Part shown: positions 22,345 to 64,000 of the stretch, in pieces
How the letters are laid out: every line of letters begins with the position of its first letter
Numbering within the stretch: position 1 is the first letter of the stretch
NCBI GenBank assembly: GCA_965215225.1
Contig: OZ244039.1
Span: 1,725,353-1,789,352, forward strand
Length of the DNA stretch: 64,000 bases
DNA from: Gammaproteobacteria bacterium
GTDB lineage: Bacteria > Pseudomonadota > Gammaproteobacteria > CBDBNL01 > JAAOII01
Direction: 5' to 3'
Position numbers and translations under genes: made by a program
The notes under the pieces: generated by a model
The model's input: only the letters and a program-made list of their open reading frames with translations
Database searches by the model: none
What the model was told of the DNA's origin: nothing

Positions 22345-22615
22345 GGAGGGATGACATGATGAAGGATGAGGGATGAAAGATGAAAGATGAAAGATGAAAG
22401 ATGAAAGATGAAAGATGAAAGATGAAAGATGAAAGATGAAAGATGAGAGATGAGAGATGAGAGATGAGAGATGAAGGATGAAGGATGAAGGATGAGAGAT
22501 GAGGGATGACATGATGAAGAATGAGAGATGAAGGATGAAAGATGAAGGGTGAAAGGTGAAGAATGAAGAATGAAGGATGAGGGATGAGGGATGGAGGATG
22601 GAAGATGAAAGATAA
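22345..22615. repeat. 8-bp microsatellite array (GATGAAAG/GATGAGAG), upstream of ATPase copy 3
   Basis: gatgaaagatgaaagatgaaag... shows period 8. It is preceded by the same 60-bp block (ggactggtttttggtgaaagtg...ctggcgtgagggagggatg) as the array at 17870. Confidence 0.9.
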
Positions 22616-24870: not shown

Positions 24871-26076
24871 CTAGAGTCCGAGTAGGGTCATGCCGGGATA
24901 TTCAAGGAATTCCTTAATATGGACTAGAAATTCAACTGCGGTTTTGCCATCAATCATCCTGTGGTCATAGGACAGAGCGAGATACATCATAGGCAGAATA
25001 ACCACCTCGCCATTAACAGCAACTGGGCGCTCCTGAATCTTATGCATACCGAGGATGCCAGTTTGAGGCGGATTAATGATAGGAGTAGACATTAAGGAGC
25101 CAAAGACGCCACCATTAGAAATAGTAAAGGTGCCTCCTTGTAGGTCTTCCAACGTAAGTTTCGCCTCTTGGGCTTTTTTGCCATAGCTTCTAATAGTCTC
25201 TTCAATCTGTGCCAATGACATAGATTGGGCATCCCTGAGGATAGGAACTACCAGCCCGCGAGGGGAAGAGACCGCAATGCCTATATCTTGATAATTACAA
25301 TAGACTATGTCGGTGCCATCTATATGGGCATTTACCTGCGGAAATTTATAAAGAGCAGAGCAAACTGCTTTGACAAAAAAGGACATGAAGCCCAGCCGAA
25401 CTCCATATTTCTCTTCAAACGGCTTCTTGTATCTAGTGCGCAATTCCATCACAGGTTGCATATTTACCTCGTTGAAAGTAGTGAGTATGGCAGCCTGCCG
25501 TTGTGATTCAACTAGTCTTTTTGCCACGCTCATTCGCAGCCGTGTCATAGGCACTCGCTTCTCAACTCTTTGATGGCCGCCCCTCTGTGCTATGTCCTGT
25601 TTGGTAATGAAAGGGCCTTGATTGTGGGTCTCCACTTCTACCCCGGTCTCAGCTGCCAAGCGCCGAGCGGCCGGACCCATCTTGCCAGCTAGTCTTCCAG
25701 CTAGCTCTGTTTCACTTGTTTTGGCAGCAGTTGTATGGGATGAAAGATTTTCAGTAGCCTCTGGTGGCTCGGCTAGTTTTTCCTGTGGTGCTGATTCAAT
25801 CTCACTTGATTTAGGTGGGGGCTTCTTCGCTGGCTCTTCTTTTGTCTTTTCATAATTGGCTATTACCTGTTGCGCCTTAACTGTGCTGCCTTCGGCGACA
25901 AGTATGCTAGTCATAATGCCCGAACTTGGCGCTGGCACTTCCAACACTATCTTATCGGTTTCCACATCTACTAGGGGTTCATCACGGCGGAAAGACTCGC
26001 CCTCCTTCTTATGCCAACGAGCAATGGTGCCCTCCTCTATTGATTCGGGAAAGACTGGGACTCTTATATCTGTCAT
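24871..26076 (-). CDS. sucB: dihydrolipoyllysine-residue succinyltransferase (2-oxoglutarate dehydrogenase E2)
   Basis: Lipoyl domain ([25 protein letters not shown]...[15 protein letters not shown]), an Ala/Pro-rich linker, a PSBD, and the catalytic domain ending DHRMIDG. The ORF track extends to 26121 ([21 protein letters not shown]) through the 9-bp repeats, so the start is ambiguous. Confidence 0.9.
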
Positions 26077-26079
26077 GCC

Positions 26080-26335
26080 TGCCATATCCGCCATATCCGC
26101 CATATCTGCCAGATACACCACTTCTTCTGTGTCTCTACCATATTTGCTATCTCCTTATATCCGCTATCTCTGCCATATCCGCCATACCCTCGATATCTAC
26201 CATACTCGCCATATCCGCCATAGCTGCCATATCCGCCATACCCTCGATATCTGCCATATCTGACATATCTGCCAGATACACCACTTCTTCTGTATCTCTA
26301 TCATATTTGCCATCTCCTCATATTCGCTATCTCTG
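26080..26335. repeat. 9-bp tandem repeats (GCCATATCC on the plus strand, GGAUAUGGC on the mRNA) in the sucA-sucB intergenic region
   Basis: Runs such as gccatatccgccatatccgccatatctgcc. Two blocks are separated by ccagatacaccacttcttctgt(g/a)tctct. Confidence 0.85.
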
Positions 26336-40226: not shown

Positions 40227-40264
40227 CTAAGTTCTTATATTTGGCTAAAAGCTCTCATGCTTGG

Positions 40265-41575
40265 CTAAAGGCTCTTATCTGGCTGAAGGCTCTCTTGGCT
40301 CAGGGCTCTTAATTTAGCCGAGAGAGAATGGGCAAACAGCCCTTCGGTCTCGGCTAGGGTTTGGGCAGGACCTGCCAACTCAGCCGCCGCTTCCTTATTG
40401 AGATTCACTAATGAAACCCTCTTGACAAAATCATAAACTCCTAAGGGAGAAGAGAAAGTACCAGCAGGTGAGGTAGGCAGAATATGGTTGGTGCCAATAC
40501 AGTAATCACCAAAAACAACTGGGCTATGATAGCCGCAAAAAATAGCTGGTGGGCGAGTGAGCAATCTGCTATGCTCCTCGCTGTTTGCTGTCATCAACTG
40601 GGTATGCTCGGCAGCCAACTGATTAACGAGAATTAAGGCTTCTTCTATATCGCGGGTTTTAATGGCAAGACCGCGATTTTCTAATGACTGTTCAATAATC
40701 GAACGGCGAGGTTGACTAGCCACAAGTTCTTTGATACTAAGCGCCACTTCTGCCAATAGGTCTTCATAGGGCGAAAAGAGAAAGGCACCGGCATAGGGAT
40801 CATGTTCTGCTTGAGCACATAGGTCTGCCGCTACCCATTCGGGCGGCGCCTGCTCATCTGCCACTATGGCAACCTCCGAAGGACCAGCTATGAGGTCTAT
40901 GCCTACCTTGCCATAGACCAGCCTCTTTGCTTCGGCAACATAAGAATTGCCCGGCCCCACTATCTTAGCAACAGGTTCAATCGTCTGTGTGCCATAGGCC
41001 ATGGCGGCTATAGCCTGAGCGCCTCCCAAACAATAGAGCCTGGTGATTGCTGGATTCATATGAGCACAAGCGAGAATGATATCGGATGGGCGACCATTGG
41101 TAGCTGGACTGAATACTACTAGCTCCTTAACGCCAGCAAGTTGGGCGGGAATAGCAGCCATCAACAGACTAGAAGGATAACAAGCACTACCGCCAGGAAC
41201 ATAGATTCCCACCCTTTCTAAAGGGAAAACAAGCTGTCGGAGCGAGCCCTTGGTTAGATTGGCGGGAAGCTCTTGACGAGAGTGATAAGCGGTGATATTG
41301 TCAGCAGCCGTCTGTAAGGCAGTCATAATAGCAGGGGGAATTCTCTCGGCCGCCGAGGCAAAAGCCGACCTCTCATATATTAGCTCTTCTACATTCTCAG
41401 CCCTAACGCCATCGTATTTTGCCGCCAATTCTAATAGGGCCCTATCCCCCTTTTGAGACACCGCCTCAAGAATGGCAAGAACCCTCTGAGTCAAAGCTTG
41501 TGGTTGTCTAGCGCGCTCTTGTATCCTAGCCCAGCAAGCAAGAAAGTCCGATTGGTCAGTGCTAAGTGATCTCAT
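40265..41575 (-). CDS. hisD: histidinol dehydrogenase
   Basis: 436 aa with the conserved HisD block IYVPGGSACYPSSLLMAAIPAQLAGV and His/Glu metal ligands (QAEHD). Confidence 0.9.
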   Translation of the reverse strand: MRSLSTDQSDFLACWARIQERARQPQALTQRVLAILEAVSQKGDRALLELAAKYDGVRAENVEELIYERSAFASAAERIPPAIMTALQTAADNITAYHSRQELPANLTKGSLRQLVFPLERVGIYVPGGSACYPSSLLMAAIPAQLAGVKELVVFSPATNGRPSDIILACAHMNPAITRLYCLGGAQAIAAMAYGTQTIEPVAKIVGPGNSYVAEAKRLVYGKVGIDLIAGPSEVAIVADEQAPPEWVAADLCAQAEHDPYAGAFLFSPYEDLLAEVALSIKELVASQPRRSIIEQSLENRGLAIKTRDIEEALILVNQLAAEHTQLMTANSEEHSRLLTRPPAIFCGYHSPVVFGDYCIGTNHILPTSPAGTFSSPLGVYDFVKRVSLVNLNKEAAAELAGPAQTLAETEGLFAHSLSAKLRALSQESLQPDKSL

Positions 41576-42479: not shown

Positions 42480-42656
42480 TTCTTCTCTTTATTATAAAGA
42501 GAAAGGTTTGATTAATTCATTTATTCTAACTAATGAGCGTCTTTGAAGATTGAAATTGAGCGGCCAATCAAAATGAGTCATCTATTTTGAGGAGGGAAGC
42601 AGACTAGCCAAACGGGTTTATTTGGAGTGCCCCTGTCCTAGCCGTTTCGGTTGGAG

Positions 42657-44972
42657 CTAGGGAAACAGCTCGTCTAAACGGGTCTGATTTAGTTCGGGTT
42701 GTCCAGTGCTATTCAAATACCACCAGCTACGCCATTCGGCAGGAGCTATGGGAGTGCATTCAATAGCGGGATACTCATCCGACTCACCAAAATCCCAGAT
42801 AAGATTGGCATCGATGTCTTCACCAGTTTCAATGCTCCCACTATTATCCCTATCACACCAAACAGCTAATGGTTCGTCAATCATACTACCATCGTCAAAC
42901 ACAACTGGGTTCTCGTCCCATTTGACATAAATCCCTGTATAGGGAGTTGGCATCTGAAGTTGACTACTAGTCTTGGCTTCACCATGGTTGCCATCAGCAT
43001 GAGTGACGCCAGTAGCATTGTACCAATAGGAATTAACTCCAGCCCCACTTCCTTCCCCAACCAGCATACGAGTAATACTGCCTGAGACCACATAAGAATA
43101 AGCAACCTTGCTAGAAGAGTCAAATCTTCCCGCCAGACCACCTATCGGATTCAGCCCGCTCAACTCATCCACCACAACCGATGAAGAATAAATCTGAGCC
43201 GATGGACCCCACCCCACCAGACCGCCTATATAAAGACCATTAATCCCACTCACTTCACCCGCCACAACCGAAGATGAAAAAACACGAGCTGAAGCACCAA
43301 ACCCCACCAGACCGCCTATAACATTACCAACCCCTCCCACCGCACCTGCCACAACCGATGAAGAATGAATCAGGCTCCCTTCACCATTCCCTACCAGACC
43401 GCCTATATTACCAGCACCCCCAAACACCATACCCATCACAACCGATGAAGAATAAATCCGAGCGGATTGACCATGGCCCACCAGACCACCCACATTTTGA
43501 GCCCCGGACGTCTCACCCACCACAACTGAAGAAGAATAAATCCGAACGGATTGACCATGGCCCACCAGACTACCTATATGGCTGCCAATACCTCTCACCC
43601 TATCCACCACAACCGAAGCAGAATGAATCCGAGCCGATTCACCATCCCCTACCAAACCGCCTACCCTAATCCTACCTATCACTGCCTCGGCACTAAGAGT
43701 CAAATTACGAATCTCTGAATTATCAGCTATATGGCCAAACAAACCCACACAATCCTCACCTGAACGACTGATATTCAAATCACTAATCATAAAACCATTG
43801 CCTTCAAAGGTCCCACTAAAAGCAGTTCCTTGACATCCGGGACCACTAGCTGTATCATGACCCAAGGGTTGCCAGCCTTTGCCGCCATCGTCATCCGCAT
43901 AGTCCGCAAGACTTATATTCGCAACCAGCTCATAACCAGAACAAGAAGTGATGCCGTCGGCACCACCACAGCCAGTTTGGTCAAGGTTGCCACCCGCCAT
44001 GGAACGATAGCCGCTGCCATCCAGTTGATGACGGACCGCATTTAATTCCTCATGTGTTCTTATCTCTATCAACCCATCCCCATCATCATCTACATCCTCC
44101 ACCGCATCCTCACAACCATCGCCATCTTTGTCGTTGTCAGAGGTAGAGACAAAATTTGAATTTTGACTGGTAGGACATTGGTCTGAATCATCTCTTATAC
44201 CGTCATTATCGTCATCATCACTGGGACCACCTGTTCCCGGATCGCCATTCCCAGGATCAGGCGGGGGCTCCGGCTCCCCAGCTAACTTCTCATCTAAAAA
44301 GTCCGCTATGCCATTGCCATCTCCATCCTCCCCTATGGCTATCCGCCCACGAACCGAACCACCTGTCGTATCATTATAGTCCGCTAAATTCCTCTCTACC
44401 GGCCGCCACGCTATTCCCCTATCACCAACCCGAGCACCATCCGCCAGTGTCTCTTCATAGGAAAAAGTAAATTCATATTCCCTCCCCGACACAAGACCCC
44501 CAAAAATATAACCCGATATCAAATCCTCCAACGAAAGACCTGGACTCATCTCCTGTCCAGTAAGCTTCCCTTCCGCATCATAAGACCTGGCATTAATACG
44601 GACCGCCGTTATGTTCCTACCAGCATAGGCCGCCCCATTTGTCAAAGTAATACTAACCCCGCCATCAAAAGGACTGAACGCTAATACAAAGGGGTCGTCT
44701 TCCGAACTGTCACTCCCCGAACCACCGCCTGAACCTCCACCGCCGCCGCCAGCACAAGCAGTAAAAACAACTGATAAGAAACCCGCCGCAACTAAGAAGA
44801 AGAGAAACCGTCCCAGCCGACTAAGCGGAATCAAGGGGGTATGATCTAGGCACAAGGCCAGATAAGAGAAGTAGAAGCGGAACCTAGCCGCTCCGAATAA
44901 TAAAAATTGGGTTGCTTTTGCCAATTTTACATTTGCCATAATAATTCTTTTTGTCATTTTCATCTTCACCAT
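42657..44972 (-). CDS. surface lipoprotein with thrombospondin type-3 Ca-binding repeats and GLUG repeats (paralog 1, 771 aa)
   Basis: Lipobox (FLSVVFTAC), a poly-Gly/Ser linker, Asp-rich TSP3-like repeats (DDDDNDGIRDDSDQCP...DNDKDGDGCEDAVEDVDDDGDGL), about 10 GLUG units (GGLVG.G.SARI.SSSVV) and a conserved C-terminal domain (AVWCD.DNSGSIE...IWDFGESDEYPAI.CTP.AP..WR.WW). Confidence 0.75.
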   Translation of the reverse strand: MVKMKMTKRIIMANVKLAKATQFLLFGAARFRFYFSYLALCLDHTPLIPLSRLGRFLFFLVAAGFLSVVFTACAGGGGGGSGGGSGSDSSEDDPFVLAFSPFDGGVSITLTNGAAYAGRNITAVRINARSYDAEGKLTGQEMSPGLSLEDLISGYIFGGLVSGREYEFTFSYEETLADGARVGDRGIAWRPVERNLADYNDTTGGSVRGRIAIGEDGDGNGIADFLDEKLAGEPEPPPDPGNGDPGTGGPSDDDDNDGIRDDSDQCPTSQNSNFVSTSDNDKDGDGCEDAVEDVDDDGDGLIEIRTHEELNAVRHQLDGSGYRSMAGGNLDQTGCGGADGITSCSGYELVANISLADYADDDGGKGWQPLGHDTASGPGCQGTAFSGTFEGNGFMISDLNISRSGEDCVGLFGHIADNSEIRNLTLSAEAVIGRIRVGGLVGDGESARIHSASVVVDRVRGIGSHIGSLVGHGQSVRIYSSSVVVGETSGAQNVGGLVGHGQSARIYSSSVVMGMVFGGAGNIGGLVGNGEGSLIHSSSVVAGAVGGVGNVIGGLVGFGASARVFSSSVVAGEVSGINGLYIGGLVGWGPSAQIYSSSVVVDELSGLNPIGGLAGRFDSSSKVAYSYVVSGSITRMLVGEGSGAGVNSYWYNATGVTHADGNHGEAKTSSQLQMPTPYTGIYVKWDENPVVFDDGSMIDEPLAVWCDRDNSGSIETGEDIDANLIWDFGESDEYPAIECTPIAPAEWRSWWYLNSTGQPELNQTRLDELFP

Positions 44973-45334
44973 AATTTGCTATTAATAAAAAAGATTAAAG
45001 TCCTTCAACCAAAGGTAGAATTCATTATACCCCTTTTGGTCTTTTCTTCCATCTTTTTCATCTTTTTTTTTTGCATCTTTCTCGTCTTTTTTTTCATCTT
45101 TTTGTCTTTTTATTTCCAAACGAAAACTAGGTTCATAAGGATAACTGGTTTATCATTATACTCAAATTAAGGCAGCCATAGAACAAATAGCAAGAAATCT
45201 TTGGTTGATTAACAAGAAACCTTTGATTATTCTGACTAATGAAAGCCTTTTGTAGATTGAAATAAAACCACCGGCTATGCCATTCCCCATTCAAATAGCT
45301 GGGGGAGGGTCTAAGTCAAAGTAAGTTGTCAGTT

Positions 45335-46990
45335 TGAGAAGGGAAGAAAAGAAGCAGATTAGCCAAAGGGGGCTAGTTGGAGTGGGCCTGTCCTAGCTGT
45401 TTGGGTTGAGGCTAGGGAAGCAGATTAACCAAAGGGGCTAGTTGGAGTGGGACTGTCCTAGCCGTTTCGGTTGAGGCTAGGGAAGCAGATTAGCCAAAGG
45501 GGGTTAGTTGGAGTGGGCCTGTCCTAGCTGTTTGGGTTGAGGCTAGGGAAGTAAATTAGCCAAAGGGGGCTGGTTGGAATGGGTCTGTCCTAGCCTTTTG
45601 GGTTGAGGCTAGGGAAGTAAATTAGCCAAAGGGGGCTGGTTGGAATGGGTCTGTCCTAGCTGTTTGGGTTGCAGCTAGGGAAGCAAATTAGCCAAAGGGG
45701 GCTAGTTGGAGTGGGTTTGTCCTAGCTGTTTGGGTTGAGGCTAGGGAAGCAAATTAGCCAAAGGGAGCTAGTTGGAGTGGGACTGTCCTAGCCGTTTCGG
45801 TTGAGGCTAGGGAAGTAAATTAGCCAAAGGGGGCTGGTTGGAGTGGGTCTGTCCTAGCCTTTTGGGTTGAGGCTAGGGAAGTAAATTAGCCAAAGGGGGC
45901 TGGTTGGAATGGGTCTGTCCTAGCCTTTTGGGTTGAGGCTAGGGAAGTAAATTAGCCAAAGGGGGCTGGTTGGAATGGGTCTGTCCTAGCTGTTTGGGTT
46001 GAGGCTAGGGAAGCAGATTAGCCAAAGGGGGCTAGTTGGAGTGGGCCTGTCCTAGCCGTTTCGGTTGAGGCTAGGGAAGCAAATTAACCAAAGGGGGCTA
46101 GTTGGAGTGGGACTGTCCTAGCCGTTTCGGTTGAGGCTAGGGAAGCAGATTAACCAAAGGGGGCTAGTTGGAGTGGGACTGTCCTAGCTGTTTGGGTTGA
46201 GGCTAGGGAAGCAAATTAGCCAAAGGAAGCTAGTTGGAGTGGGACTGTCCTAGCTGTTTGGGTTGCAGCTAGGGAAGCAGATTAACCAAAGGGGGCTAGT
46301 TGGAGTGGGCCTGTCCTAGCTGTTTGGGTTGAGGCTAGGAAAGCAAATTAGCCAAAGGGGGCTAGTTGGAGTGGGTCTGTCCTAGCCGTTTGGGTTGAGG
46401 CTAGGAAAGCAGATTAACCAAAGGGGGTTAGTTGGAGTGGGCCTGTCCTGGCCGTTTCGGTTGAGGCTAGGGAAGCAGATTAGCCAAAGGGGTCTAGTTG
46501 GAGTGGGTCTGTCCTAGCTGTTTGGGTTGAGGCTAGGGAAGTAAATTAGCCAAAGGGGGCTAGTTGGAGTGGGACTGTCCTAGCTGTTTGGGTTGAGGCT
46601 AGGGAAGCAAATTAGCCAAAGGGGGCTAGTTGGAGTGGGCCTGTCCTAGCTGTTTGAGTTGAGGCTAGGGAAGCAGATTAGCCAAAGGGGGCTAGTTGGA
46701 GTGGGCCTGTCCTAGCTGTTTGAGTTGAGGCTAGGGAAGCAAATTAACCAAAGGGGGCTAGTTGGAGTGGGCCTGTCCTAGCTGTTTGGGTTGCAGCTAG
46801 GGAAGCAAATTAGCCAAAGGGGGTTAGTTGGAGTGGGTCTGTCCTAGCCGTTTCGGTTGAGGCTAGGGAAGCAAATTAACCAAAGGGGGCTAGTTGGAGT
46901 GGGTCTGTCCTAGCTGTTTGGGTTGAAGCTAGGGAAGCAGACTAGCCAAACGGGTTTATTTGGAGTGCCCCTGTCCTAGCCGTTTCGGTT
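45335..46990. repeat. 66-bp tandem repeat array (about 25 units; consensus GGCTAGGGAAGCAGATTAGCCAAAGGGGGCTAGTTGGAGTGGGCCTGTCCTAGCTGTTTGGGTTGA)
   Basis: Visible periodicity. Each unit has inverted elements gctaggg/cctagc and derives from the 3'-terminal coding sequence of the adjacent GLUG gene. Confidence 0.9.
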
Positions 46991-46994
46991 GGAG

Positions 46995-48929
46995 CTATTG
47001 AAGCAGATCGTCCAAACGAGCCCGGTCTAGTTCGGGTTTGCCACTCGCATTCAAAGACCACCAATCACGCCAATCGTCAGGAGCTAGCGGAGTGCAGCGA
47101 ATGGCGGGATATTGACTTGAAGTGCCGAAGTTCCAGATGAGATTGCCAGGGGTTTGTTCATCTGACTCTATGCTCCCACTGTTATCTTCATCACACCAGA
47201 CCGCCAATGGCACGTTCCCATCACCAAACAGATCTGTGTTATCGTCCCAAGTGGCATAAATATCTGTATAGTTAGTTGGACTGCGGAGATCGCTAGTGGT
47301 CTTGGCTTCACCATGATTGCCATTAGTGACGCCACTAGTATCACTGTCCCAATAGGAAGCAACTCCAGTCCCACTTCCTTGCCCAACCAGCGGCATAGTA
47401 GCACTGCCTGAGACCATGTAAGAATAAGCAACCCGACCAGCAGCAAAATCTCCCACCAGACCACCCGTAGGAATACCCCCTCTCACCTCACCCACCACAA
47501 CCGAAGAAGAATGAATTCGAGCACCTAGACCAGCCCCCACCAGACCACCTGTACTACTCTGTCCACTCACCTGAGCCGCTATAGCCGAAGAAGAAAAAAT
47601 GCTAGCATTTTGACCAAATCCTACCAGTCCGCCTGAATAAATACCAGCTACATCTGACGCTCTCACCTCAGCTGCCACAACCGAAGAAGAATAAATTCGA
47701 GCATTTGAACCATCCCCCACCAGACCACCTATAGTACTACTCCCGCTCACCTCAGCTGCCACCACCGAAGAAGAAACAATCCGAGCCGAGTTACCATCCC
47801 CCACCAGACCACCTACCCCAAACTTACCTATCACTGCCTCGGCACGAAGAATCAAATTGCGAATGGTTGCACCAGGGGCAAGATGCCCAAATAAACCCAC
47901 ACAATCTTCACCTGAACGACTAATGCTCAAATTGCTAATCATAAAACCATTGCCTTCAAAGGTCCCACTAAAAGCAGTTCCTTGACATCCTCTGGCAACT
48001 CTATCTGTATCTTGACCCAAGGGCTGCCAGCCTTTGCCGCTATCATAATCCACATAGTCTGCCAGACTTATATTATCAACCAGCTCATAACCAGAACAAG
48101 AAGTGATGCCGCCGGTACCACCACAGCCAGTGGTGTCGGCCGCCCCAGTATCCAATAGCTTGCGCCCGCTACCATCCAGTTGATGACGCACCGCATTTAA
48201 TTCCTCATGTGTTCTTATCTCTATCAACCCATCCCCATCATCATCTACATCAACATCATCTAGATAGGCATCATTATCATCATTATCATCTACACTATCC
48301 GCTCGCCTATCTCCATCCGTATCCAGCCCCGACCGAATACCGTCCCCGGCGTGATCATCATGATTCTCAGGCCAAACAAAAACTATATTCACCTCCTGCT
48401 CCCTGCTATCGCTAAGAATCCCAGTAATCTGAAACTTCCAATCTCGGTCAGCTAGCCCAGTAAAATCATAGCTGTCATTAGCAAATTCGTCTATGTTGAT
48501 ACTTCTCTCTACAACCTCGCTTCCACTAGTTGCCGTAATCTTCAAAGAAGTGAAACTGCTAAAGTCCGATTGGCTGCCTATTTGAAACCCACCCCTTATA
48601 GGAGCAAAAGTGAGACTCGCGTTAAAAACTCCCAGAACCATCGCGCCGTTTCCTGGACCATTGCCATCCATCGAACTATTGTTTACCGGACCACCATCAC
48701 CCGAACTGCCACCACCCCCGCCGCCAGCACAAGCAGTAAGAACAACTGATAAGAAACCAGCCGCAACTAAGAAGAAGAGGAACCGTCCCAGCCTACTAAG
48801 CAGAGTCAGGGGGGCATGATAAGAGAAATAGAAGCAGAACCTAGCCGCTCCGAATAATAAGAATTGGGTTGCTTTTGCCATTTTTATATTTGCCATAATA
48901 GTTCCTTTTACCATTTTTACATTCTCCAT
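46995..48929 (-). CDS. surface lipoprotein with TSP3-like and GLUG repeats (paralog 2, 644 aa)
   Basis: Same N-terminal region, lipobox LTAC and conserved C-terminal domain as paralog 1, with a different central region. It has Asp-rich DDNDDNDAYLDDVDVDDDGDGL and GLUG units. Confidence 0.75.
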   Translation of the reverse strand: MENVKMVKGTIMANIKMAKATQFLLFGAARFCFYFSYHAPLTLLSRLGRFLFFLVAAGFLSVVLTACAGGGGGGSSGDGGPVNNSSMDGNGPGNGAMVLGVFNASLTFAPIRGGFQIGSQSDFSSFTSLKITATSGSEVVERSINIDEFANDSYDFTGLADRDWKFQITGILSDSREQEVNIVFVWPENHDDHAGDGIRSGLDTDGDRRADSVDDNDDNDAYLDDVDVDDDGDGLIEIRTHEELNAVRHQLDGSGRKLLDTGAADTTGCGGTGGITSCSGYELVDNISLADYVDYDSGKGWQPLGQDTDRVARGCQGTAFSGTFEGNGFMISNLSISRSGEDCVGLFGHLAPGATIRNLILRAEAVIGKFGVGGLVGDGNSARIVSSSVVAAEVSGSSTIGGLVGDGSNARIYSSSVVAAEVRASDVAGIYSGGLVGFGQNASIFSSSAIAAQVSGQSSTGGLVGAGLGARIHSSSVVVGEVRGGIPTGGLVGDFAAGRVAYSYMVSGSATMPLVGQGSGTGVASYWDSDTSGVTNGNHGEAKTTSDLRSPTNYTDIYATWDDNTDLFGDGNVPLAVWCDEDNSGSIESDEQTPGNLIWNFGTSSQYPAIRCTPLAPDDWRDWWSLNASGKPELDRARLDDLLQ

Positions 48930-49319
48930 AATTGGTTTTAATAAAAAAATCCTTCAACTAAAGGTGGAATTTATTATACCCTTTTTTGTCTTCTTTTCGT
49001 CTTTTCTGTCTTTTTTTTCAACTTTTTTGCTTTTTTTCCATCTTTTTGTTCTCTTTTGGTCTTTTTTTCATCTTTTTGTTTTTTTTTTCCAAACGAAAAC
49101 TAGGTTCATAAGGATAACTGGTTTATCATTATACTCAAATTAAGGCAGCCATAGAACAAATAGCAAGAAATCTTTGGTTGATTAACAAGAAACCTTTGAT
49201 TATTCTGACTAATGAAAGCCTTTTGTAGATTGAAATAAAACCACCGGCTATGCCATTCCCCATTCAAATAGCTGGGGGAGGGTCTAAGTCAAAGTAAGTT
49301 GTCAGTTTGAGAAGGGAAG

Positions 49320-50900
49320 AAAAGAAGCAGATTAGCCAAAGGGGGCTAGTTGGAGTGGGTCTGTCCTAGCTGTTTGGGTTGAAGCTAGGGAAGCAAATTA
49401 GCCAAAGGGGGCTAGTTGGAGTGGGCCTGTCCTAGCTGTTTGGGTTGAGGCTAGGGAAGCAGATTAACCAAAGGGGCTAGTTGGAGTGGGACTGTCCTAG
49501 CCGTTTCGGTTGAGGCTAGGGAAGCAGATTAGCCAAAGGGGGTTAGTTGGAGTGGGTCTGTCCTAGCTGTTTGGGTTGCAGCTAGGGAAGCAGATTAACC
49601 AAAGGGGGCTAGTTGAAGTGGGCATGTCCTAGCTGTTTGGGTTGAAGCTAGGGAAGCAAATTAACCAAAGGGGGCTAGTTGGAGTGGGTCTGTCCTAGCC
49701 TTTTGGGTTGAGGCTAGGGAAGTAAATTAGCCAAAGGGGGCTAGTTGGAGTGGGTCTGTCCTAGCTGTTTGGGTTGCAGCTAGGGAAGCAAATTAGCCAA
49801 AGGGGGCTAGTTGGAGTGGGTCTGTCCTAGCTGTTTGGGTTGCAGCTAGGGAAGCAGATTAGCCAAAGGGGGCTGGTTGGAGTGGGTCTGTCCTAGCCGT
49901 TTGGGTTGCAGCTAGGGAAGCAAATTAGCCAAAGGGAGCTAGTTGGGGTGGGGCTGTCCTAGCTGTTTGGGTTGCAGCTAGGGAAGCAAATTAGCCAAAG
50001 GGGGCTAGTTGGAGTGGGCCTGTCCTAGCTGTTTGGGTTGAGGCTAGGGAAGCAAATTAGCCAAAGGGGGCTAGTTGAAGTGGGCATGTCCTAGCTGTTT
50101 GGGTTGAAGCTAGGGAAGCAAATTAACCAAAGGGGGCTAGTTGGAGTGGGCCTGTCCTAGCTGTTTCGGTTGAAGTTGAGGGTCTCAGCCAAAGCAAGTT
50201 GTCAGTTTGAGAAGGGAAGAAAAGAAGCAGACTAGCCAAAGGGGGCTAGTTGGAGTGGGTCTGTCCTAGCTGTTTGGGTTGCAGCTAGGGAAGCAAATTA
50301 GCCAAAGGGGGCTAGTTGGAGTGGGACTGTCCTAGCCGTTTCGGTTGAGGCTAGGGAAGCAGATTAGCCAAAGGGGGCTAGTTGGAGTGGGTCTGTCCTA
50401 GCTGTTTGGGTTGAAGCTAGGGAAGCAAATTAGCCAAAGGGGGCTAGTTGGAGTGGGTCTGTCCTAGCTGTTTGGGTTGCAGCTAGGGAAGTAAATTAAC
50501 CAAAGGGGGTTAGTTGGAGTGGGCCTGTCCTAGGTGTTTAGGTTGAGGCTAGGGAAGCGAATTAGCCAAAGGGAGCTAGTTGGAGTGAGTCTGTCCTAGC
50601 TGTTTGGGTTGAGGCTAGGGAAGCAAATTAACCAAAGGGGGTTAGTTGGAGTGGGCCTGTCCTAGCTGTTTGGGTTGAAGTTGAGGGTCTAAGTCGAAGC
50701 AAGTTGTCAGTTTGAGAAGGGAAGAAAAGAAGCAGACTAGCCAAAGGGGGCTAGTTGGAGTGGGTCTGTCCTAGCTGTTTCGGTTGAAGTTGAGGGTCTA
50801 AGCCAAAGCAAGTTGTCAGTTTGAGAAGGGAAGAAAAGAAGCAGACTAGCCAAATGGGGCTAGTTGGAGTGGGTCTGTCCTAGCCGTTTGGGTTGAGGCT
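49320..50900. repeat. 66-bp tandem repeat array, second copy (about 24 units in 3-4 sub-arrays)
   Basis: Same unit as 45335-46990. Sub-array boundaries are marked by gttgtcagtttgagaagggaagaaaagaagcag. Confidence 0.9.
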
Positions 50901-53061
50901 AGGGAAGTAGATTGTCTAAACGGTCCCAGTTTAATCTGGGTTTGGCAGGCGTCCCCTCCAAAGACCACCAGTCACGCCAGTCTTCGGGATCTAGCGGAGT
51001 GCAGCGAATGGCGGGATATTCATCCGACTCGCCGAAATCCCAGATGAGATTGTCATTGGTTCGTTCATCTGATTCTATACTCCCACTATTATCCTTATCA
51101 CACCAGACCGCCAGTGGCTCATCACTCATCCCATCGTTAAATATATTTATGTCATCGTCCCACTCTTCATAAATCCCTGTATAGTCAGTTGGCTCGCGAA
51201 GATCATTGCTGGTCTTGGCTTCACCATAATTGCCATTAGTGACGCCACTAGTCTCACTGTCCCAATAAGAAGCAACTCCAGTCCCACTTCCTCTCCCAAC
51301 CAGCATAGAAGTCATACTGCCTGAGACCACATAAGAATAAGCAACCTGGCTAAAGGTCAATGCTCCCACCAAACCGCCTAGATCAATACTCCCTTCTAGC
51401 TCACCCACCACAACCGAAGAAGAAACAATCTGAGTACCACTACCAGATCCTATCAGACCGCCTAGCTGACCAGTTCCTCTCACCTCGCCTGCCACAACTG
51501 AAGAAGAAGCAATCCGAGCCGATGTACCATCCCCTACCAAACCCCCTATAGACTGACCCCCTCTCAGACTACCCAGCACAACCGAAGAAGAAGCAATCCA
51601 AACTGATGTACCAGACCCTACCAGACCGCCTATACTAAGTTTAAAATTATCAATCTCGCTCACCACCCCAGCTGCCACAACCGAAGAAGAAGCAATCCGA
51701 GCCGATGAACCCAACCCCACCAAACCCCCTACAGCATTATCCCCTTTCACCTCACCCACCATAACCGAAGAAGAAACAATCCGAGATCCTGAACCATCCC
51801 CCACCAGAGTGCCTACTCTATTCCTAGCTGTCACTGCCTCGGCACTAAGAGTCAGATTGCGAATCTCTGAACTCGCGGTTATATGACCAAACAGACCTAC
51901 ACAATCCTCATCTGAACGACTAATATTCAAATCACTAATCGTCCAGCCATTGCCTTCAAAAATCCCATCAAAAGCATCTCCTTGACATCCAATGGTGCCA
52001 CTAGCTGTGTCATGACCCAAGGGTTGCCAGCCTTTGCCTCCATCAGCGCTCATATAGGTTGCAAGACTGATATTTGCAACCAGCTCATAGCCAGAACAAG
52101 AAGCAGTAGTGCCATTGCCACAGCCAGTGGAGTCGAGCGCCTCGCTCGCCGTTAGCTTCCTCCCTACGCCATTCAAAGCATAACGCACCGCATCCAGCTG
52201 CGCCGCTGTGGCTATCTCTATCAACCCATCGCCATCATCATCTATGTCCGTTCCATCCATCGAATTGTCATTATCGCAATCGTTATCCTGGACACATTCA
52301 GCTGCTGCCTCATCTCCATCGCGGACATGATCATCATCGCAATCGGCTTTCATTACACAGGCTGCCGCTACTTCATCCCCATCGCGGACATGATCATCGT
52401 CGCAATCGGCTTTTATCACACAGGCTGCCGCTACTTCATCCCCATCGCGGACATGATCATCGTCGCAATCGGCTTTTATCACACAGGCTGCCGCTACTTC
52501 ATCTATATCCATGACACTATCCCCATCGCAATCCACCAACAGCGAACATCTCACCTCATCTGAATTAGTCTGTCGCTCTCTCTCATCAACATCATCCAAC
52601 CCATCATTATCATCATCCTCATCACAAACATCGCCCTCACCATCCTTATCTGTATTAGTCTGGTCGGGATTTGCAACAAGCGGACAATTATCCATAGCAT
52701 TCTCCATGCCATCATTATCATCATCACTGGAAGCATCGCTTCCCGAACCATTGTCGCCCGAACCATTGTCGCCCGGACCACTGTCTCCCGAACCATCGGT
52801 CATCGAACCATTGCCTATTAAACCGATGCTGCTTGAACTGCCGCCAGCACAAGCAGTGAGAACAGCTGATAAGAAACCAGCCGCAACTAAGAAGAAGAGG
52901 AACCGTCCCAGCCTACTAAGCAGAGTCAGGGGGGCATGATCTAGGCTCGGGGCTAGATAAGGGGCCAGATAAGAAAAATAGCAGCGAAACCTAGCCGCCC
53001 CGAATAAAAATCGATTTACATCTGTCATATTTACATTTGTCATAATAATTCCCTCCCGCAT
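50899..53061 (-). CDS. surface lipoprotein with TSP3-like and GLUG repeats (paralog 3, 720 aa)
   Basis: Canonical TSP3 repeats (DDDNDGMENAMDNCPLVANPDQTNTDKDGEGDVCDEDDDNDGLDD), a 20-aa x3 internal repeat (CVIKADCDDDHVRDGDEVAAA), GLUG units and the conserved C-terminal domain. Confidence 0.75.
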   Translation of the reverse strand: MREGIIMTNVNMTDVNRFLFGAARFRCYFSYLAPYLAPSLDHAPLTLLSRLGRFLFFLVAAGFLSAVLTACAGGSSSSIGLIGNGSMTDGSGDSGPGDNGSGDNGSGSDASSDDDNDGMENAMDNCPLVANPDQTNTDKDGEGDVCDEDDDNDGLDDVDERERQTNSDEVRCSLLVDCDGDSVMDIDEVAAACVIKADCDDDHVRDGDEVAAACVIKADCDDDHVRDGDEVAAACVMKADCDDDHVRDGDEAAAECVQDNDCDNDNSMDGTDIDDDGDGLIEIATAAQLDAVRYALNGVGRKLTASEALDSTGCGNGTTASCSGYELVANISLATYMSADGGKGWQPLGHDTASGTIGCQGDAFDGIFEGNGWTISDLNISRSDEDCVGLFGHITASSEIRNLTLSAEAVTARNRVGTLVGDGSGSRIVSSSVMVGEVKGDNAVGGLVGLGSSARIASSSVVAAGVVSEIDNFKLSIGGLVGSGTSVWIASSSVVLGSLRGGQSIGGLVGDGTSARIASSSVVAGEVRGTGQLGGLIGSGSGTQIVSSSVVVGELEGSIDLGGLVGALTFSQVAYSYVVSGSMTSMLVGRGSGTGVASYWDSETSGVTNGNYGEAKTSNDLREPTDYTGIYEEWDDDINIFNDGMSDEPLAVWCDKDNSGSIESDERTNDNLIWDFGESDEYPAIRCTPLDPEDWRDWWSLEGTPAKPRLNWDRLDNLLP

Positions 53062-53270
53062 TCAAAGAAGAACAAGTCCCTCTTGACTACAAAATAGGGA
53101 CAAAAACAACAAAAATGCGACTTAGATGCCCCCAATCAACACTCAATTCCAACCTCTAAAAACGCCTTTATTAGTTAGAATAGACTAATTAAGGGCTTCA
53201 AAGAAAATTAGTATTAGTAGCCTTTAAAGACCTATTGACTTCATAAAATAGAAAGCAATGATAAGAAATA

Positions 53271-54173
53271 ATGATGAGTGAAAAGAATCAAACCATTCAA
53301 GGAAGCATGGTTGCTTTGGTAACTCCCATGCTAGCCGAAAGTCATGAGATTGATTGGCAAACCTTAGAACAACTAATAGACTGGCATATCGAACAGGGAA
53401 CTGATGCCATCATCGCGGTGGGGACTACTGGCGAGTCTTCTACCCTAAGCCATAGGGAACACATAGCAATAGTAGCAAAGATAGTCAAGCAAGCAGATGG
53501 CAAGATACCCATCATCGCTGGGACAGGTTCGAACTCTACCCGTGAAGCCATCGACCTGACCAAAGCCGCCGAACAAGCAGGGGCAGACGCTGCCCTCTTG
53601 ATGGTGCCCTATTACAACAAGCCGCCCCAGCAGGGACTCATAAGGCATTTTCTCGCGATTGCTGATGCGGTTGATATGCGGCAGATTATCTATAATGTTC
53701 CAAGTCGCACCATTACCGACATACTACCAGAAACTCTGGCGGAGACAAGCCATCATCCCAATATTATCGGCATCAAGGAAGCTACTGGCGATATTAGCCG
53801 CGTAGAAAAAATACATCGGTTATGTGGGGAAGGTTTCCTCATCTATTCGGGAGATGACGCCAGTTGTGTAGAACTAATGCTTGCTGGTGGCAAAGGATGT
53901 ATTTCGGTAACTGCCAATGTTGTCCCAGCACTGATGCACCAACTATGTCAATTAGCCATTGAAGGAGAAGCAGACAAGGCAAGGCAGTTGAACGAAACCC
54001 TGAGTGCGCTGCACTCGGTTCTCTTTGTTGAGTCAAATCCCATCCCAGTCAAATATGCCCTCTATCTATGTAAGAGAATACAAAACGCCATTCGCTTGCC
54101 CCTGTTGCCGCTATTGTCCAGTCATCATCCACAACTCAAAGCAATATTAAAAGAACTCTCTTTACTTCATTAA
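53271..54173 (+). CDS. dapA: 4-hydroxy-tetrahydrodipicolinate synthase
   Basis: VALVTPM...GTDAIIAVGTTGESSTLSHREH...YNVPSRT... matches the DapA motifs, and a Lys occurs at the expected catalytic position (IKEATGD). Confidence 0.9.
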   Translation: MMSEKNQTIQGSMVALVTPMLAESHEIDWQTLEQLIDWHIEQGTDAIIAVGTTGESSTLSHREHIAIVAKIVKQADGKIPIIAGTGSNSTREAIDLTKAAEQAGADAALLMVPYYNKPPQQGLIRHFLAIADAVDMRQIIYNVPSRTITDILPETLAETSHHPNIIGIKEATGDISRVEKIHRLCGEGFLIYSGDDASCVELMLAGGKGCISVTANVVPALMHQLCQLAIEGEADKARQLNETLSALHSVLFVESNPIPVKYALYLCKRIQNAIRLPLLPLLSSHHPQLKAILKELSLLH

Positions 54174-55447: not shown

Positions 55448-56521
55448 GAGCCGCCGAACAAAACTTCTATCAAGATAGTTTTTCCAATACCACACCCAAT
55501 AGCCAGTAAAAGAGAAGCTGCCCCTTTGCCCTAAGGCAGCCTTGTTTCCTAAGGATAGTAGGGTGAGGAATTCCTGCTGAGGATGATAAGAGTTCAATTC
55601 CTTTTCCGCTGCCATGGCCAAGAGGTTATGGCCAAGACAGGGAGCCTGCCGAACGGCAAAGACCCCTGCTTTTGGTAAATTATGTCCTGTCAGACTAGCT
55701 ATATCCCCAGCCGCAAAAATATTAGGATGAGAAAGAGATTGTAAGCGGTCATTTACCTTGACAAAACCGTCTTCATCAAGCTGTAAAGGGCTCTCTTTAA
55801 GCCAATGAGGAGGAACCCCATTGGTTGCCCAAAAGACATAGTCTGCCGCCACTCTGGTCTCAGTAGAATCAGCCGACCGAATCAGCAGACTCTTATCTTG
55901 CCATGCCATGACCCAGCTTTGTTCTCTCAGTTGAACATTTGCATCGCTCAACTTTTGTCTAGCCAGCTTGACTAGTCGCTCAGCATAACCGGGCAATAGG
56001 TTATCGGCTGTAATTAAGCTCAGCTGGCAGTCTTTGCGCCGCCAAGCAAGTGCCAGGGCAACCTCCAGGCTAGCCGCCCCACCGCCCACTACAGCAAGAT
56101 GCATCCGACCTTTATGCTCAAGTAGGGATTCCCACTTTGAGATAAATTCAGTGACCGGTTTGAGTGGCAAGGAATCTTCTGTTTGGGTATTGGCAGGCAA
56201 GGAAGAAGACACACCCAGATTAAGCGAGGCAATATCAAAACCCAGCGCCCCCCTATCCGTGATAATGGAATCATCATTAATAGCCTCGACCCTAGCAAGG
56301 AAAAACTCAACCCCGACTTTCTGACAGAGTCGCGGCAGGCTGATACTGATGTCTTCTATCCCATAGTGACCGGCGATGAAGCCAGGTAGCATGCCAGTAT
56401 AAAGCAGCGCCTGGGATTCGCTAACCAGAGTAATATGGTGAGCACAGGGTTTGAGAGCTCTTAATACCAGTGCATGGGTATGGCCGCCGCCAAGAAGGAC
56501 TATCTTTTTCTTTGTCATCAA
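55433..56521 (-). CDS. FAD-dependent pyridine nucleotide-disulfide oxidoreductase family protein (SQR/NDH-2-like)
   Basis: An N-terminal dinucleotide-binding fingerprint KKIVLLGGGHTHALVL and a second motif HLAVVGGGAASLEVALAL, 362 aa. Confidence 0.5.
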   Translation of the reverse strand: MMTKKKIVLLGGGHTHALVLRALKPCAHHITLVSESQALLYTGMLPGFIAGHYGIEDISISLPRLCQKVGVEFFLARVEAINDDSIITDRGALGFDIASLNLGVSSSLPANTQTEDSLPLKPVTEFISKWESLLEHKGRMHLAVVGGGAASLEVALALAWRRKDCQLSLITADNLLPGYAERLVKLARQKLSDANVQLREQSWVMAWQDKSLLIRSADSTETRVAADYVFWATNGVPPHWLKESPLQLDEDGFVKVNDRLQSLSHPNIFAAGDIASLTGHNLPKAGVFAVRQAPCLGHNLLAMAAEKELNSYHPQQEFLTLLSLGNKAALGQRGSFSFTGYWVWYWKNYLDRSFVRRLLGNA

Positions 56522-57055
56522 TAGGCTATTTAATCCGCAAATGATAATATCATATGGCTAAAAATTATTAAACTTAGCATTTAATTATGACAAGAAAATG
56601 GCAAGGATCTGCAATACCAGTGCATGGTTATGGCCGCCGCCAAGAAGGACTATCTTTTTCTTTATCATCAATAGGCTATTTAATCCGCAAATGATAATAT
56701 CATATGGCTAAAAATTATTAAACTTAGCATTTAATTATGACAAGAAAATGGCAAGGATCTGCAATACCAGTGCATGGGTATGACCGCCGCCAAGAAGGAC
56801 TATCTTTTTCTTTGTCATCAACAGGCTATTTAATCCGCAAATGATAATATCATATGGCTAAAAATTATTAAACTTAGCATTTAATTATGACAAGAAAATG
56901 GCAAGGATCTGCAATACCAGTGCATGGGTATGGCCGCCGCCAAGAAGGACTATCTTTTTCTTTATCATCAATAGGCTATTTAATCCGCAAATGATAATAT
57001 CATATGGCTAAAAATTATTAAACTTAGCATTTAATTATGACAAGAAAATGGCAAG
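56455..57055. repeat. 150-bp tandem repeat x4 spanning the divergent promoter region and the first codons of both flanking genes
   Basis: The unit ...caataccagtgcatgggtatggccgccgccaagaaggactatctttttctttgtcatcaataggctatttaatccgcaaatgataatatcatatggctaaaaattattaaacttagcatttaattatgacaagaaaatggcaaggatctg recurs at 56461, 56611, 56761 and 56911. Confidence 0.9.
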
Positions 57056-58064
57056 GATCTGCGCTTTAATCACTGGCGGCACCATTGGGATGATAACCAG
57101 AGGCAACTCCAGTCTTATGCCAGCCCAGCCTCTAGACTATAGCAGGTTCTTCCCCCATCTTGCTGAGCTGGCTGAAATAGACTATCATCTGGTCTTCTAT
57201 TTAGACAGCAGTGCAGTCGGCGCGCCTCAATGGCGCGAGCTAGCGACGGCTATAGAGAAACGGCTGGATAAATATGATGGCTTTGTGGTCTGTCATGGGA
57301 CGGATACCATGGCATACTCGGCTTCTGCCTTGGCCTATGCCTTTGGCAGCTGTCTTAATCATCCTATAGTTTTTACTGGCTCCCAGCGAACGCCTGATTC
57401 GCCAGCTAGTGATGCCCAAGCCAACCTAGTTGCTTCTATCAAGTTGGCTTCGAGCCAGCTAGCGGAAGTGGCTATAGCCTTTGACAAGCTAGCCTGGCGA
57501 GCCTGCCGCACCATTAAGGTATCTAACTCTCAAGACGCTGCCTTCGTCTCCCCCAAGACACCACCTCTAGCCCGGCTGGATACAAGATGCACCTTGACTT
57601 TAACCCCAACGGCTAGAAGACAATCTCCCCAGCAAAAGACTGGCAAGCCAATCAGCGATTTCAGCAATCGCTTAGCCTTCTTCTATGCCGTCCCTTCTCA
57701 TGAACCAACCAGTTTAATTCAGCAGGCGAAGAGCGCCAGCTGGCAAGTAGGATTAGTAGTGGGTTTAGGCAATGGTAATCTTCCCCCGCGATTTCTGTCC
57801 TTCATTCGAGCAGCAAAAGAACATCATAAGCAGATCATCATCGCCTCAGCAAATTGTGACCCATCTCCCACTTCCTATCCACCATTAAGAGAAGCACTAG
57901 AACAGGGCGCTATCTATGCTGGCGGCTATAGCCTGCCGGGCCTATGGACGAAACTTTGCTGGCTGATACCCCAAAGTGAAAAGCTCAAAAACAACCAACA
58001 AGAAGCCTTCTTCAAAGCGGCATTGGCAAAATCCTATGTAGGAGAATTAGAAATAGAACCTTAA
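57048..58064 (+). CDS. L-asparaginase (type I, AnsA-like)
   Basis: The LITGGTIGM threonine motif and the HGTDTMAYSASAL signature are collinear with E. coli AnsA, at 338 aa. Confidence 0.75.
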   Translation: MARICALITGGTIGMITRGNSSLMPAQPLDYSRFFPHLAELAEIDYHLVFYLDSSAVGAPQWRELATAIEKRLDKYDGFVVCHGTDTMAYSASALAYAFGSCLNHPIVFTGSQRTPDSPASDAQANLVASIKLASSQLAEVAIAFDKLAWRACRTIKVSNSQDAAFVSPKTPPLARLDTRCTLTLTPTARRQSPQQKTGKPISDFSNRLAFFYAVPSHEPTSLIQQAKSASWQVGLVVGLGNGNLPPRFLSFIRAAKEHHKQIIIASANCDPSPTSYPPLREALEQGAIYAGGYSLPGLWTKLCWLIPQSEKLKNNQQEAFFKAALAKSYVGELEIEP

Positions 58065-63779: not shown

Positions 63780-64000
63780 AAAGCAAGTCATCAGCTGTCA
63801 GTTGTCAATTTAAGGAGGGAAGCGGCTCTTCTAAACATCAACAAATCAAACAAAGAACTAAGTTGTCAGTTTAAGGAGGGAAGCAGCTCTTCTAAACAGA
63901 AGCTGGCCCAAGCCAATACTAGCGTCATCAGTTTGTGGGGGAAAGCAGCTGGTCTAAATGGGCTTGGTTTAGTTGGGGTTTGCCATTAACCAAAGACCAC
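63780..64000. repeat. beginning of another array of the 66-bp repeat family plus the 3' end of a fourth GLUG-lipoprotein paralog (minus strand), running off the window
   Basis: gttgtcagtttaaggagggaagcagctcttctaaaca units. The terminal ...ggtttgccattaaccaaagaccac matches the reverse complement of the C-terminal coding sequence seen at 46996-47060. Confidence 0.6.

Follow-up and report, generated by a model that had tools for sequence, protein, structure and literature searches.

Why should two blocks of a 66-bp tandem repeat, each about 1.6 kb long, lie between consecutive lipoprotein genes of a bacterial chromosome? The question was raised by a 64,000-nt stretch of the Gammaproteobacteria assembly GCA_965215225.1 (contig OZ244039.1, positions 1,725,353 to 1,789,352; hereafter the window), in which three paralogous lipoprotein genes of the GLUG family (g1, g2 and g3) are separated by two such blocks (arrays A1 and A2). 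A first-pass annotation, made from the letters alone, had described the arrays and suggested that they serve as a recombination substrate for paralog exchange, as terminators or insulators, or as a structured 3' untranslated region (3' UTR). Our results point, with moderate confidence, to a plainer answer, namely that the arrays are hypervariable and probably functionless minisatellites (variable-number tandem repeats, VNTRs) that arose when a duplication spanned a stop codon and that expanded through slippage and unequal recombination, with the gain, loss and reshuffling of paralogs as a side effect.

Tandem Repeats Finder reported 25.1 copies of a 66-bp period at 45351-47005, with 91% matches and zero indels, and resolved the second array (49324-50896) into 12.9 copies of the 66-bp unit at 49324-50175, 6.9 copies at 50224-50680 and 2.5 copies of a 109-bp period at 50620-50896. 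Searched at ≤3 mismatches, a core of 23 nt from the unit matched 46 times, all on the minus strand and all inside A1 or A2, against 0 matches in 100 shuffles, which bore out the two arrays; the conserved core of the unit reads GCTAGGACAG. Parsing gave 25 units for A1 and 22 for A2, three of the latter being 109-bp variants, and units diverged from one another at ~8% of positions. The earlier figure of about 25 near-identical units per array therefore holds for A1, whereas A2 has 22 and is interrupted three times by a 43-bp insert, which is carried by the 109-bp units and is a copy of A2's own distal flank. Genes and arrays were confirmed, with their orientation corrected to the minus strand; because the genes lie on that strand, A1 begins with the stop (TAG) of g2 and A2 with that of g3, and each extends as far as the promoter region of the gene that follows, whose ~380 bp separate the array from the next start codon. 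The first unit of each array supplies or abuts the TAG of the upstream gene, a continuity that had been proposed. In A1 this first unit is degenerate and has the same sequence as the lone unit behind g1, the unit before the last measures 65 bp, and the last units, the 65-bp one included, are common to A1 and A2.

The unit proved to derive from the final 22 codons of the gene together with the stop, of which it is a diverged copy, as the first-pass annotation had held. When the sequence behind the g1 stop was compared with the coding sequence before it at an offset of 66, 34/69 positions were identical (null 17.3 ± 3.8, maximum 30 in 2000); the best ungapped self-offset of the stretch from the stop against the coding sequence before it was 65-71 nt for nearly every paralog; and gene tails aligned to the less derived g1 unit with local-alignment z up to 8.5. 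The homology is firm over the last 8-11 codons, ACCCGTTTrGAC...CTGCTTCCC (TRLDxLLP), and weaker farther upstream. The match at a 66-nt offset indicates that the single-unit state is a 1.3-copy tandem duplication straddling the stop. This is the state behind g1, where the degenerate unit previously placed at 42560-42660 resolved into exactly one unit (Table 1), and it is also the state behind most paralogs. The further 66-bp units claimed at 63780-64000 were not confirmed: the repeat there consists instead of the last 38 nt of a truncated paralog, g4, followed by two more copies at 61-62-bp spacing, an independent small 3'-end duplication that is distinct from the 66-bp unit and yet the same phenomenon. 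Such duplications arose independently elsewhere in the family as well as in g4. Another paralog has a 124-bp x 4.3 array (L027 21225-21756) that holds 31 C-terminal codons (tblastn 59-68% identity), in L002, a remote member of the family recovered from a JGI metagenome, a repeat of 71 bp x 2.4 begins at the TAA stop, and in P0081 the 3'-end duplication is present in frame.

To place the unit relative to the gene family, 46 units were made into an nhmmer profile, which was run against ~374 kb of sequence, ~220 kb of it from this clade. Outside the arrays, the unit was found only at GLUG paralog stops or ≤~330 nt downstream of them, mostly directly at the stop (Table 1), which upheld the view that it is tied to these genes and is not a dispersed repeat. 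In another genome (L026), five or more paralogs clustered in tandem had no arrays and only strongly degenerate relics of the unit. The unit had no exact match among 185,579 GTDB representative genomes. Its pattern was absent from IMG/VR and blastn against PLSDB gave nothing, and on these results a mobile-element origin (phage, plasmid or other) was rejected. Among 8 non-orthologous paralogs, the 66 nt behind the stop were 73.0% identical, compared with 74.4% for the last 66 coding nt and 53.4% for the 66 nt that follow the unit, a drop that implies either constraint or gene conversion reaching exactly to the unit end.

Comparison of strains showed how the arrays behave. The syntenic locus (dapA, GLUG genes, DLH gene, hisD, gidB, parA, parB) was analyzed in two other assemblies, L001 and L028, whose flanks are 97.5-97.6% identical to the window. 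With P standing for a promoter module, the window has the layout g3 - A2 (22 units) - P - g2 - A1 (25 units) - P - g1 - one unit; L028 has g3 ortholog (98.4%) - one array (20 units) - P - g1 ortholog (95.5%); and L001 has g3 ortholog - one array (15 units) - duplicated dapA 5' fragment and promoter - chimeric paralog - one unit. Three genes and two arrays in the window are thus matched by two genes and one array in each of the other assemblies, and copy number varies (25 + 22 units in the window, 15 in L001 and 20 in L028). These layouts indicated that the window has one extra 3973-bp period of array, P and g2, which L028 lacks. The L028 array is a mosaic in which units 1-3 match units 1-3 of L001 (0-1 mismatch), units 4-10 are collinear with units 5-11 of A1 (0-3 mismatches, four identical) and unit 15 is identical to A2 unit 13. 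A 7-unit block that stands behind g2 in the window therefore sits behind g3 in L028, which fits unequal exchange or deletion between A1 and A2. The second gene of L001 (gene B) is chimeric, its 5' part being g2-like (86%) and the remainder g3-like (79%). Directly after the L001 array, positions 9298-9854 hold the duplicated dapA 5' end and g3 upstream region, 95.9% identical to window 53121-53674.

Tandem repeats of 1.6 kb are hard for short-read assembly and might be collapsed or inflated by it. That the arrays are artefacts of this kind is hardly credible, since an array of the 66-bp unit lies at the same place in three independent assemblies (contigs 48.7 kb to 2.3 Mb), collinear blocks of unit variants occur in the same order between them, and the ~8% divergence among units anchors the assembly.

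The presence or absence of the g2 module exactly between the arrays, together with the mosaic array, agrees with the recombination-substrate role put forward in the first pass; among the roles proposed there, this one alone has evidence in its favor, and that evidence fits a passive consequence and a purpose alike. If there were a purpose, gene end and post-stop unit would form a dedicated downstream anchor for gene conversion or cassette exchange among >100 lipoprotein paralogs, the arrays would raise the exchange rate, and surface variation would be programmed. Such a device would suit a huge family (567 matches, dozens per contig) whose members have a lipobox and the long repeat regions typical of variable surface proteins, but the paralogs examined have their own start codon and signal peptide, there is no sign of a single expression site with silent cassettes, and no recombinase or G-quadruplex (G4)-like initiator was seen in the window. 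The conserved block that stops exactly at the unit end, intergenic DNA made of pseudo-3'-ends, the chimeric gene B of L001, the gain or loss of g2 between arrays and the one mosaic array would all be expected of an anchor; any long direct repeat, however, would passively cause the recombination observed, and like arrays stand behind housekeeping genes, where a variation system is unexpected. We consider a dedicated anchor unlikely.

The nearest models for an anchor are the Sma/Cla repeat of the Neisseria pil genes and the DHS of Borrelia hermsii, both downstream homology elements of antigenic-variation families. They share with the present unit a conserved short sequence at or just past the 3' end of surface-protein paralogs and the formation of mosaics by recombination. 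A conserved 3' sequence was indeed found here (73.0% in the 8 paralogs), being absent or strongly diverged in the L026 cluster. Those systems, however, rely on one expression site, silent cassettes and dedicated initiation, whereas the paralogs here look independently expressible from their sequence: each of the full-length paralogs examined carries a start codon, a signal peptide and a lipobox, promoter-like upstream regions are conserved for g1, g2 and the L026 cluster, and neither promoterless silent cassettes nor a single expression locus were found among the full-length paralogs examined. Unlike Sma/Cla and DHS, the element has also multiplied into arrays of pure tandem copies, and no machinery was identified.

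A different role would place the function in RNA, with the 66 nt behind the stop acting as a functional 3'-UTR module (a weak terminator or RNA-stability hairpin) that was amplified into a multi-terminator insulator, each paralog being driven by its own promoter. Arrays that lie between same-strand genes and a unit conserved like coding sequence among paralogs would suit this role. The inverted pair CCTAGC...GCTAGG of the first-pass annotation is well preserved, stem pairs 1-6 being retained in 55-62 of the 62 distinct units, and a single unit can fold on the sense strand into two hairpins, CCTAGC-N13-GCTAGG and TAGCC-N6-GGCTA (z -1.9 to -3.4). Folds of two units are unexceptional on either strand, however (z about -0.9), and across the 62 distinct units neither the paired cells (87.8% versus 87.6 ± 0.3 in column shuffles, reached by 157/500 shuffles) nor the covariation score (0.078 versus 0.078, 231/500) exceeded the shuffles. 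RNAalifold on nine diverged paralog units returned as sole common element a 7-bp stop-codon hairpin of -6.6 kcal/mol with a covariation term of -0.1, and Rfam gave no match at gathering score in the entire window. The proposal of a structured 3' UTR was accordingly not sustained. A SAM_alpha match in A1 from a relaxed Rfam scan (E = 0.22) was attributed to chance. The CTAG richness of the units was discarded as uninformative because CTAG is not avoided in the remainder of the window (observed/expected 0.99).

As to termination or insulation, terminator-like sites in the region numbered 25, against 12.5 ± 4.1 in shuffles, and a terminator-like variant, ACTAGCC-CCCTTT-GGCTAGT followed by CTGCTTCTTTTCTT, occurs at 50864, 50755 and 50250. 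This combination of a 7-bp stem and CTGCTTCTTTTCTT is confined to the 109-bp variant or terminal units, whereas in ordinary units the stem is 5 bp and leads into ATTTGCTTCC, a poor U-tract. Moreover, a single unit, or none as in L026, suffices for most paralogs, the number of copies varies (15 to 25), and unrelated sequences make similar arrays behind clpB, sucB and hisD. A 3'-UTR module as the reason for the arrays is thus improbable in our judgment, with its case strongest in the 109-bp variants.

The arrays themselves are non-coding, with stops in all six frames and a longest open stretch of 43 codons. In the frame of the gene, a unit reads stop-PQPKQLGQTHSN-stop-PPLANLLP, and the period equals 22 codons, most units have TAG as their sole stops in this frame, and some have CAG at the TAG positions of others, all of which would be expected if the arrays were translated by TAG read-through or reassignment as a 22-residue C-terminal repeat of PQPKQLGQTHSNQPPLANLLP-type peptides. 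TAG is an ordinary stop here, however, because it ends 16/38 long ORFs (open reading frames) in the window, hisD included, and is the commonest stop among them. In the first unit behind g1 as well as g2, TAA comes up in frame 12 codons on, several units have TAA at the second stop position, both arrays contain the frameshifting 65-bp unit, the window encodes no suppressor tRNA (its sole tRNA is tRNA-Ser), and family members end at ...LLP. On these grounds, read-through was rejected as extremely improbable.

What lies elsewhere in the genome also favors a functionless satellite. Tandem Repeats Finder detected at least 10 non-coding tandem arrays in the 64 kb, three of them ≥1.4 kb. Arrays at the stop codons of clpB, the sucB-like gene and hisD, which the first-pass annotation had not reported, indicate that the phenomenon is genome-wide and not a device of the GLUG genes. 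At hisD, the repeat supplies the last codons and the stop, in 4 copies in the window, 30.8 in L001 and ~15 in L028, so that the C-terminus of HisD and the position of its stop differ among strains. A survey of 119 bacterial genomes found a median of 0-3 satellites per Mb, with 2.7% of satellites >1.5 kb (PMC6749651), and by this measure satellites are exceptionally abundant in the lineage, the GLUG arrays among them. These arrays look like an example of genome-wide satellite growth and not like a new molecular device. A duplication that straddles a stop would keep the protein unchanged and hence belong to the class likeliest to survive, which may explain why the arrays are anchored on stops.

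The course of events that we propose is as follows. In an ancestral GLUG lipoprotein gene, a stop-straddling tandem duplication would have copied the last ~22 codons and the stop; the reading frame would have stayed intact, and many paralogs would have inherited one 66-nt pseudo-3'-end after the stop. At the present locus, the 1.3-copy direct repeat may then have expanded to 15-25 copies through replication slippage and unequal homologous recombination. The resulting arrays most likely have no sequence-specific function, and their chief consequence would be structural, in that recombination between the 1.5-kb direct-repeat tracts that flank g2 could add or delete a paralog with its promoter module and reshuffle the arrays.

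Four points weigh against this account. The single unit is conserved like coding sequence, and a purely neutral relic should decay. An array is kept behind the g3 ortholog in all three strains. All variants that extend the CCTAGC/GCTAGG stem make Watson-Crick pairs (TG..CA, CT..AG, C..G, T..A), which could reflect selection for the hairpin, the independent events being few; template-switch correction of a quasi-palindrome also produces such pair-making variants. Finally, the arrays may have a role in termination or RNA stability. The boldest construction of these points would make the 66-nt post-stop element a purpose-built 3' boundary or anchor for >100 surface lipoproteins, the arrays a contingency locus at which paralogs and promoters are gained, lost and swapped at high frequency, and this deep-branching gammaproteobacterial lineage the bearer of a specific mechanism by which stop codons throughout the genome are seeded with satellites; we regard this as doubtful.

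Functionless or not, the arrays matter in several respects. Long non-coding satellites are rare in bacteria, and this lineage has them at high density, anchored on stop codons and variable among strains. They offer a clean natural example of a satellite born from a gene's own 3' end and then carried along with the expansion of the family, and they form break-and-join points at which an entire lipoprotein gene was gained or lost between strains with ~97.5% identical flanks. The arrays could be used as strain-typing markers, and they call for caution with short-read assemblies of this lineage. Should the conservation of the single unit reflect function, it would give a handle on the regulation or diversification of a very large surface-protein family.

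Table 1 Positions of the arrays, units, genes and other repeats (window coordinates unless another assembly or locus is named).
Feature	Position	Strand	Remarks
Array A1, 25 units of 66 bp	45351..47005	-	TAG stop of g2 to promoter region of g1
Array A2, 22 units	49324..50901	-	TAG stop of g3 to promoter region of g2
Three 109-bp variant units of A2	~50883-50775, 50774-50666, 50269-50161	-	Unit parsing
Single diverged 66-bp unit	42596..42661	-	Directly 3' of g1 TAG; nhmmer E = 1.4e-14
Lone units outside arrays	Window 42596-42661; L001 12215-12276; L027 12075-12140, 21156-21217; L029 19118-19170; L030 11910-11973; L031 9553-9612, 9831-9886		nhmmer
g1, GLUG-family lipoprotein paralog, 771 aa	42657..44972	-	ORF; C-terminus ...LNQTRLDELFP, then stop
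g2, paralog, 644 aa	46995..48929	-	ORF; between both arrays; absent at L028 syntenic locus
g3, paralog, 720 aa	50899..53061	-	ORF; L028 ortholog 98.4% DNA identity, array at stop too
Truncated paralog g4, 3' end: last 38 nt and two more copies	63800..63960	-	61-62-bp spacing; stop TGA 63928-63930
Module P1	44734..45350	-	Array-distal flank, coding relic '...AEWRSWWFLN', A-rich repeat, -10-like TATAAT, first ~240 nt of g1
Module P2	48709..49323	-	Same make-up as P1, running into g2; 86.8% identical to P1
Inverted-repeat arm, 38 nt, 74% complementary	42512..42549	.	Partner 53155-53192; brackets entire paralog cluster
Partner arm, upstream of g3	53155..53192	.	Pairs with 42512-42549
clpB array, ~1.4 kb: 45-bp x 3.7, then 13-bp x 98.8	8014-9443		clpB on minus strand, 9450-12080
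sucB-like E2 array, ~0.8 kb, period 78-101 bp (near 90)	24048-24862		E2 gene on minus strand, 24871-26121
hisD 18-bp (6-codon) repeat	Window 40238-40311; L001 14649-15197; L028 14710-14978		Overlaps 3' end of hisD
150-bp x 4.0 repeat	Window 56463-57062; L001 1911-2510; L028 1594-2193

We compared the arrays with repeat systems described in other bacteria. They resemble the prokaryotic satellites surveyed by Subirana & Messeguer (2019) in being head-to-tail and in having a period that is a multiple of three, which reflects a coding origin (PMC6749651). Most long-unit satellites in that survey lie inside genes, in contrast to the non-coding arrays of this window (PMC6749651). The closest known kind is the bacterial intergenic VNTR, as defined by head-to-tail 66-bp units, strain-variable copy number and a non-coding nature. 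Its best-known example is the mycobacterial interspersed repetitive unit (MIRU), and the present arrays lie outside the MIRU family itself. As in the MIRU-VNTRs of Mycobacterium tuberculosis, tandem repeats in the 40-100-bp range occupy intergenic positions between same-strand genes in copy numbers that vary among isolates (PMC2734929). The function of MIRU-VNTRs is itself unsettled, with regulation, differential translation and chromosome structure having been proposed (PMC2734929). There is, however, no sequence relation between the two. MIRUs occupy 41 unrelated loci, usually in few copies, whereas the present unit comes from one family's own 3' end, follows only that family and reaches up to 25 copies (1.6 kb); dispersal at unrelated intergenic loci was not seen in the ~374 kb examined. 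MIRUs reportedly overlap the stop codon of the upstream gene, a point said to go back to Supply et al. in 1997. Compared with a MIRU-type ORF that overlaps both the upstream stop and the downstream start, the first unit here overlaps the stop and no ORF runs through the units.

Repetitive extragenic palindromic (REP) sequences and bacterial interspersed mosaic elements (BIMEs) are dispersed genome-wide in clusters of alternating orientation and are mobilised by REP-associated tyrosine transposases (RAYT). The unit resembles them as a short imperfect palindrome just past stops with possible effects on mRNA 3' ends, and it differs in its strictly direct head-to-tail copies, its restriction to the 3' ends of one family and the lack of a transposase nearby. 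With regard to a mobile repeat of the REP or miniature inverted-repeat transposable element (MITE) type, no dispersal was seen in ~374 kb, the 38-nt inverted repeat (Table 1) brackets the cluster and not the units, and the cluster has no transposase. A regular period of ~66 bp with a palindromic element in every unit recalls CRISPR arrays. We rejected CRISPR, as the first-pass annotation had, since there are no unique spacers and the entire 66 bp repeat at 91-92% identity; Pfam scans of the neighboring genes found no cas genes. Iterons and integrons were dismissed on array anatomy, nothing being present between units, and a diversity-generating retroelement (template repeat/variable repeat) was dismissed because the gene end and the unit differ at all four bases and not at adenines only. 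No reverse transcriptase was found among the neighbors scanned (part of the window ORFs).

The genes belong to a lipoprotein family with a lipoprotein signal (LTAC...), Asp-rich TSP3-like repeats, ~28-residue VGGLVG...SSSV repeats and a conserved C-terminus, ...YPAIRCTP..WRSWW.L....P.LN.TRLD.LLP. The GLUG label stands at the level of the family, PF07581 (GLUG) being found in 5/13 members and TSP_3 in 4/13, and not for the window genes on their own, since g1, g2 and g3 singly fell below Pfam thresholds. In all, 567 members of the family were detected, and single contigs (2,317,988 and 1,806,920 bp) carry dozens of them; about 60 of the best 120 of the 567 matches lie on one 2.3-Mb contig. Paralogs sit singly or clustered between housekeeping genes (L026, L027, L029-L031). 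The only relatives in GTDB representative genomes are 26-36% identical and come from one Gammaproteobacteria metagenome-assembled genome (MAG), and JGI metagenomes yielded only distant relatives, which places the source species outside those collections. The bacterium is uncultured and has no close relatives among sequenced organisms: its HisD shares ≤51% identity with database sequences outside its own clade, and those of them that bear a name are assigned only to Gammaproteobacteria, Pseudomonadales and a few other MAG taxa.

Several features lie around the cluster. The DNA just past the arrays (45250-45300 and 49220-49270; ggggaatggcatagccggtggttttatttcaat) is a degenerate copy of the coding sequence '...AEWRSWWFLN', which indicates that the intergenic regions are built from relics of GLUG 3' ends. 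The inverted repeat that brackets the cluster is also present in L028 (5474-5510 and 12457-12493; 37-38 nt, 74-81% complementary overall); it was undetected in L001 and inconsistent at the other paralog loci examined, and the idea of terminal inverted repeats around single paralogs was set aside. Its downstream-type arm is part of a 57-nt flank element that also occurs after A1, after A2 and behind several other paralogs. A second VNTR of 66-bp period and unrelated sequence lies upstream of the g3 ortholog, with 7.6 copies in L028 (5498-5997), 1 in the window (~53130-53170) and 2 in L001 (~9830-9920).

Among the remaining satellites, the clpB array begins 8 nt past the TAG, and its 13-bp unit reads TCTTTATTCCGCC on the plus strand; this period leaves three plus-strand frames open and produces spurious ORFs of 286-452 aa. 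The array behind the sucB-like gene (2-oxoacid dehydrogenase E2) is CTAG-rich and also begins 8 nt past the stop, and its units start with CCTAGCTCACC, somewhat resembling CCTAGCCTCAACC of the GLUG unit. The 150-bp repeat, whose copies are 98% identical, separates the divergent Pyr_redox_2 and asparaginase genes and reaches into the 5' end of each; unlike the other arrays, it has 4.0 copies in all three strains. Three tandem AAA_15/AAA_21 (AbiEii-like) ATPase paralogs (18343-19458, 20394-21509 and 22848-23951) occupy a stretch of 37% GC and are flanked by 7-bp microsatellites at 17877-18145 and 22358-22613 (GAGGGAT x 38, GATGAAA x 36). In L029, a non-coding array of 1.6 kb (2802-4465) with an 11/23-bp period and ~140 copies, TGATTGGGAGCTGATTAGGGAAT, separates a GLUG paralog from a type ISP restriction-modification gene.

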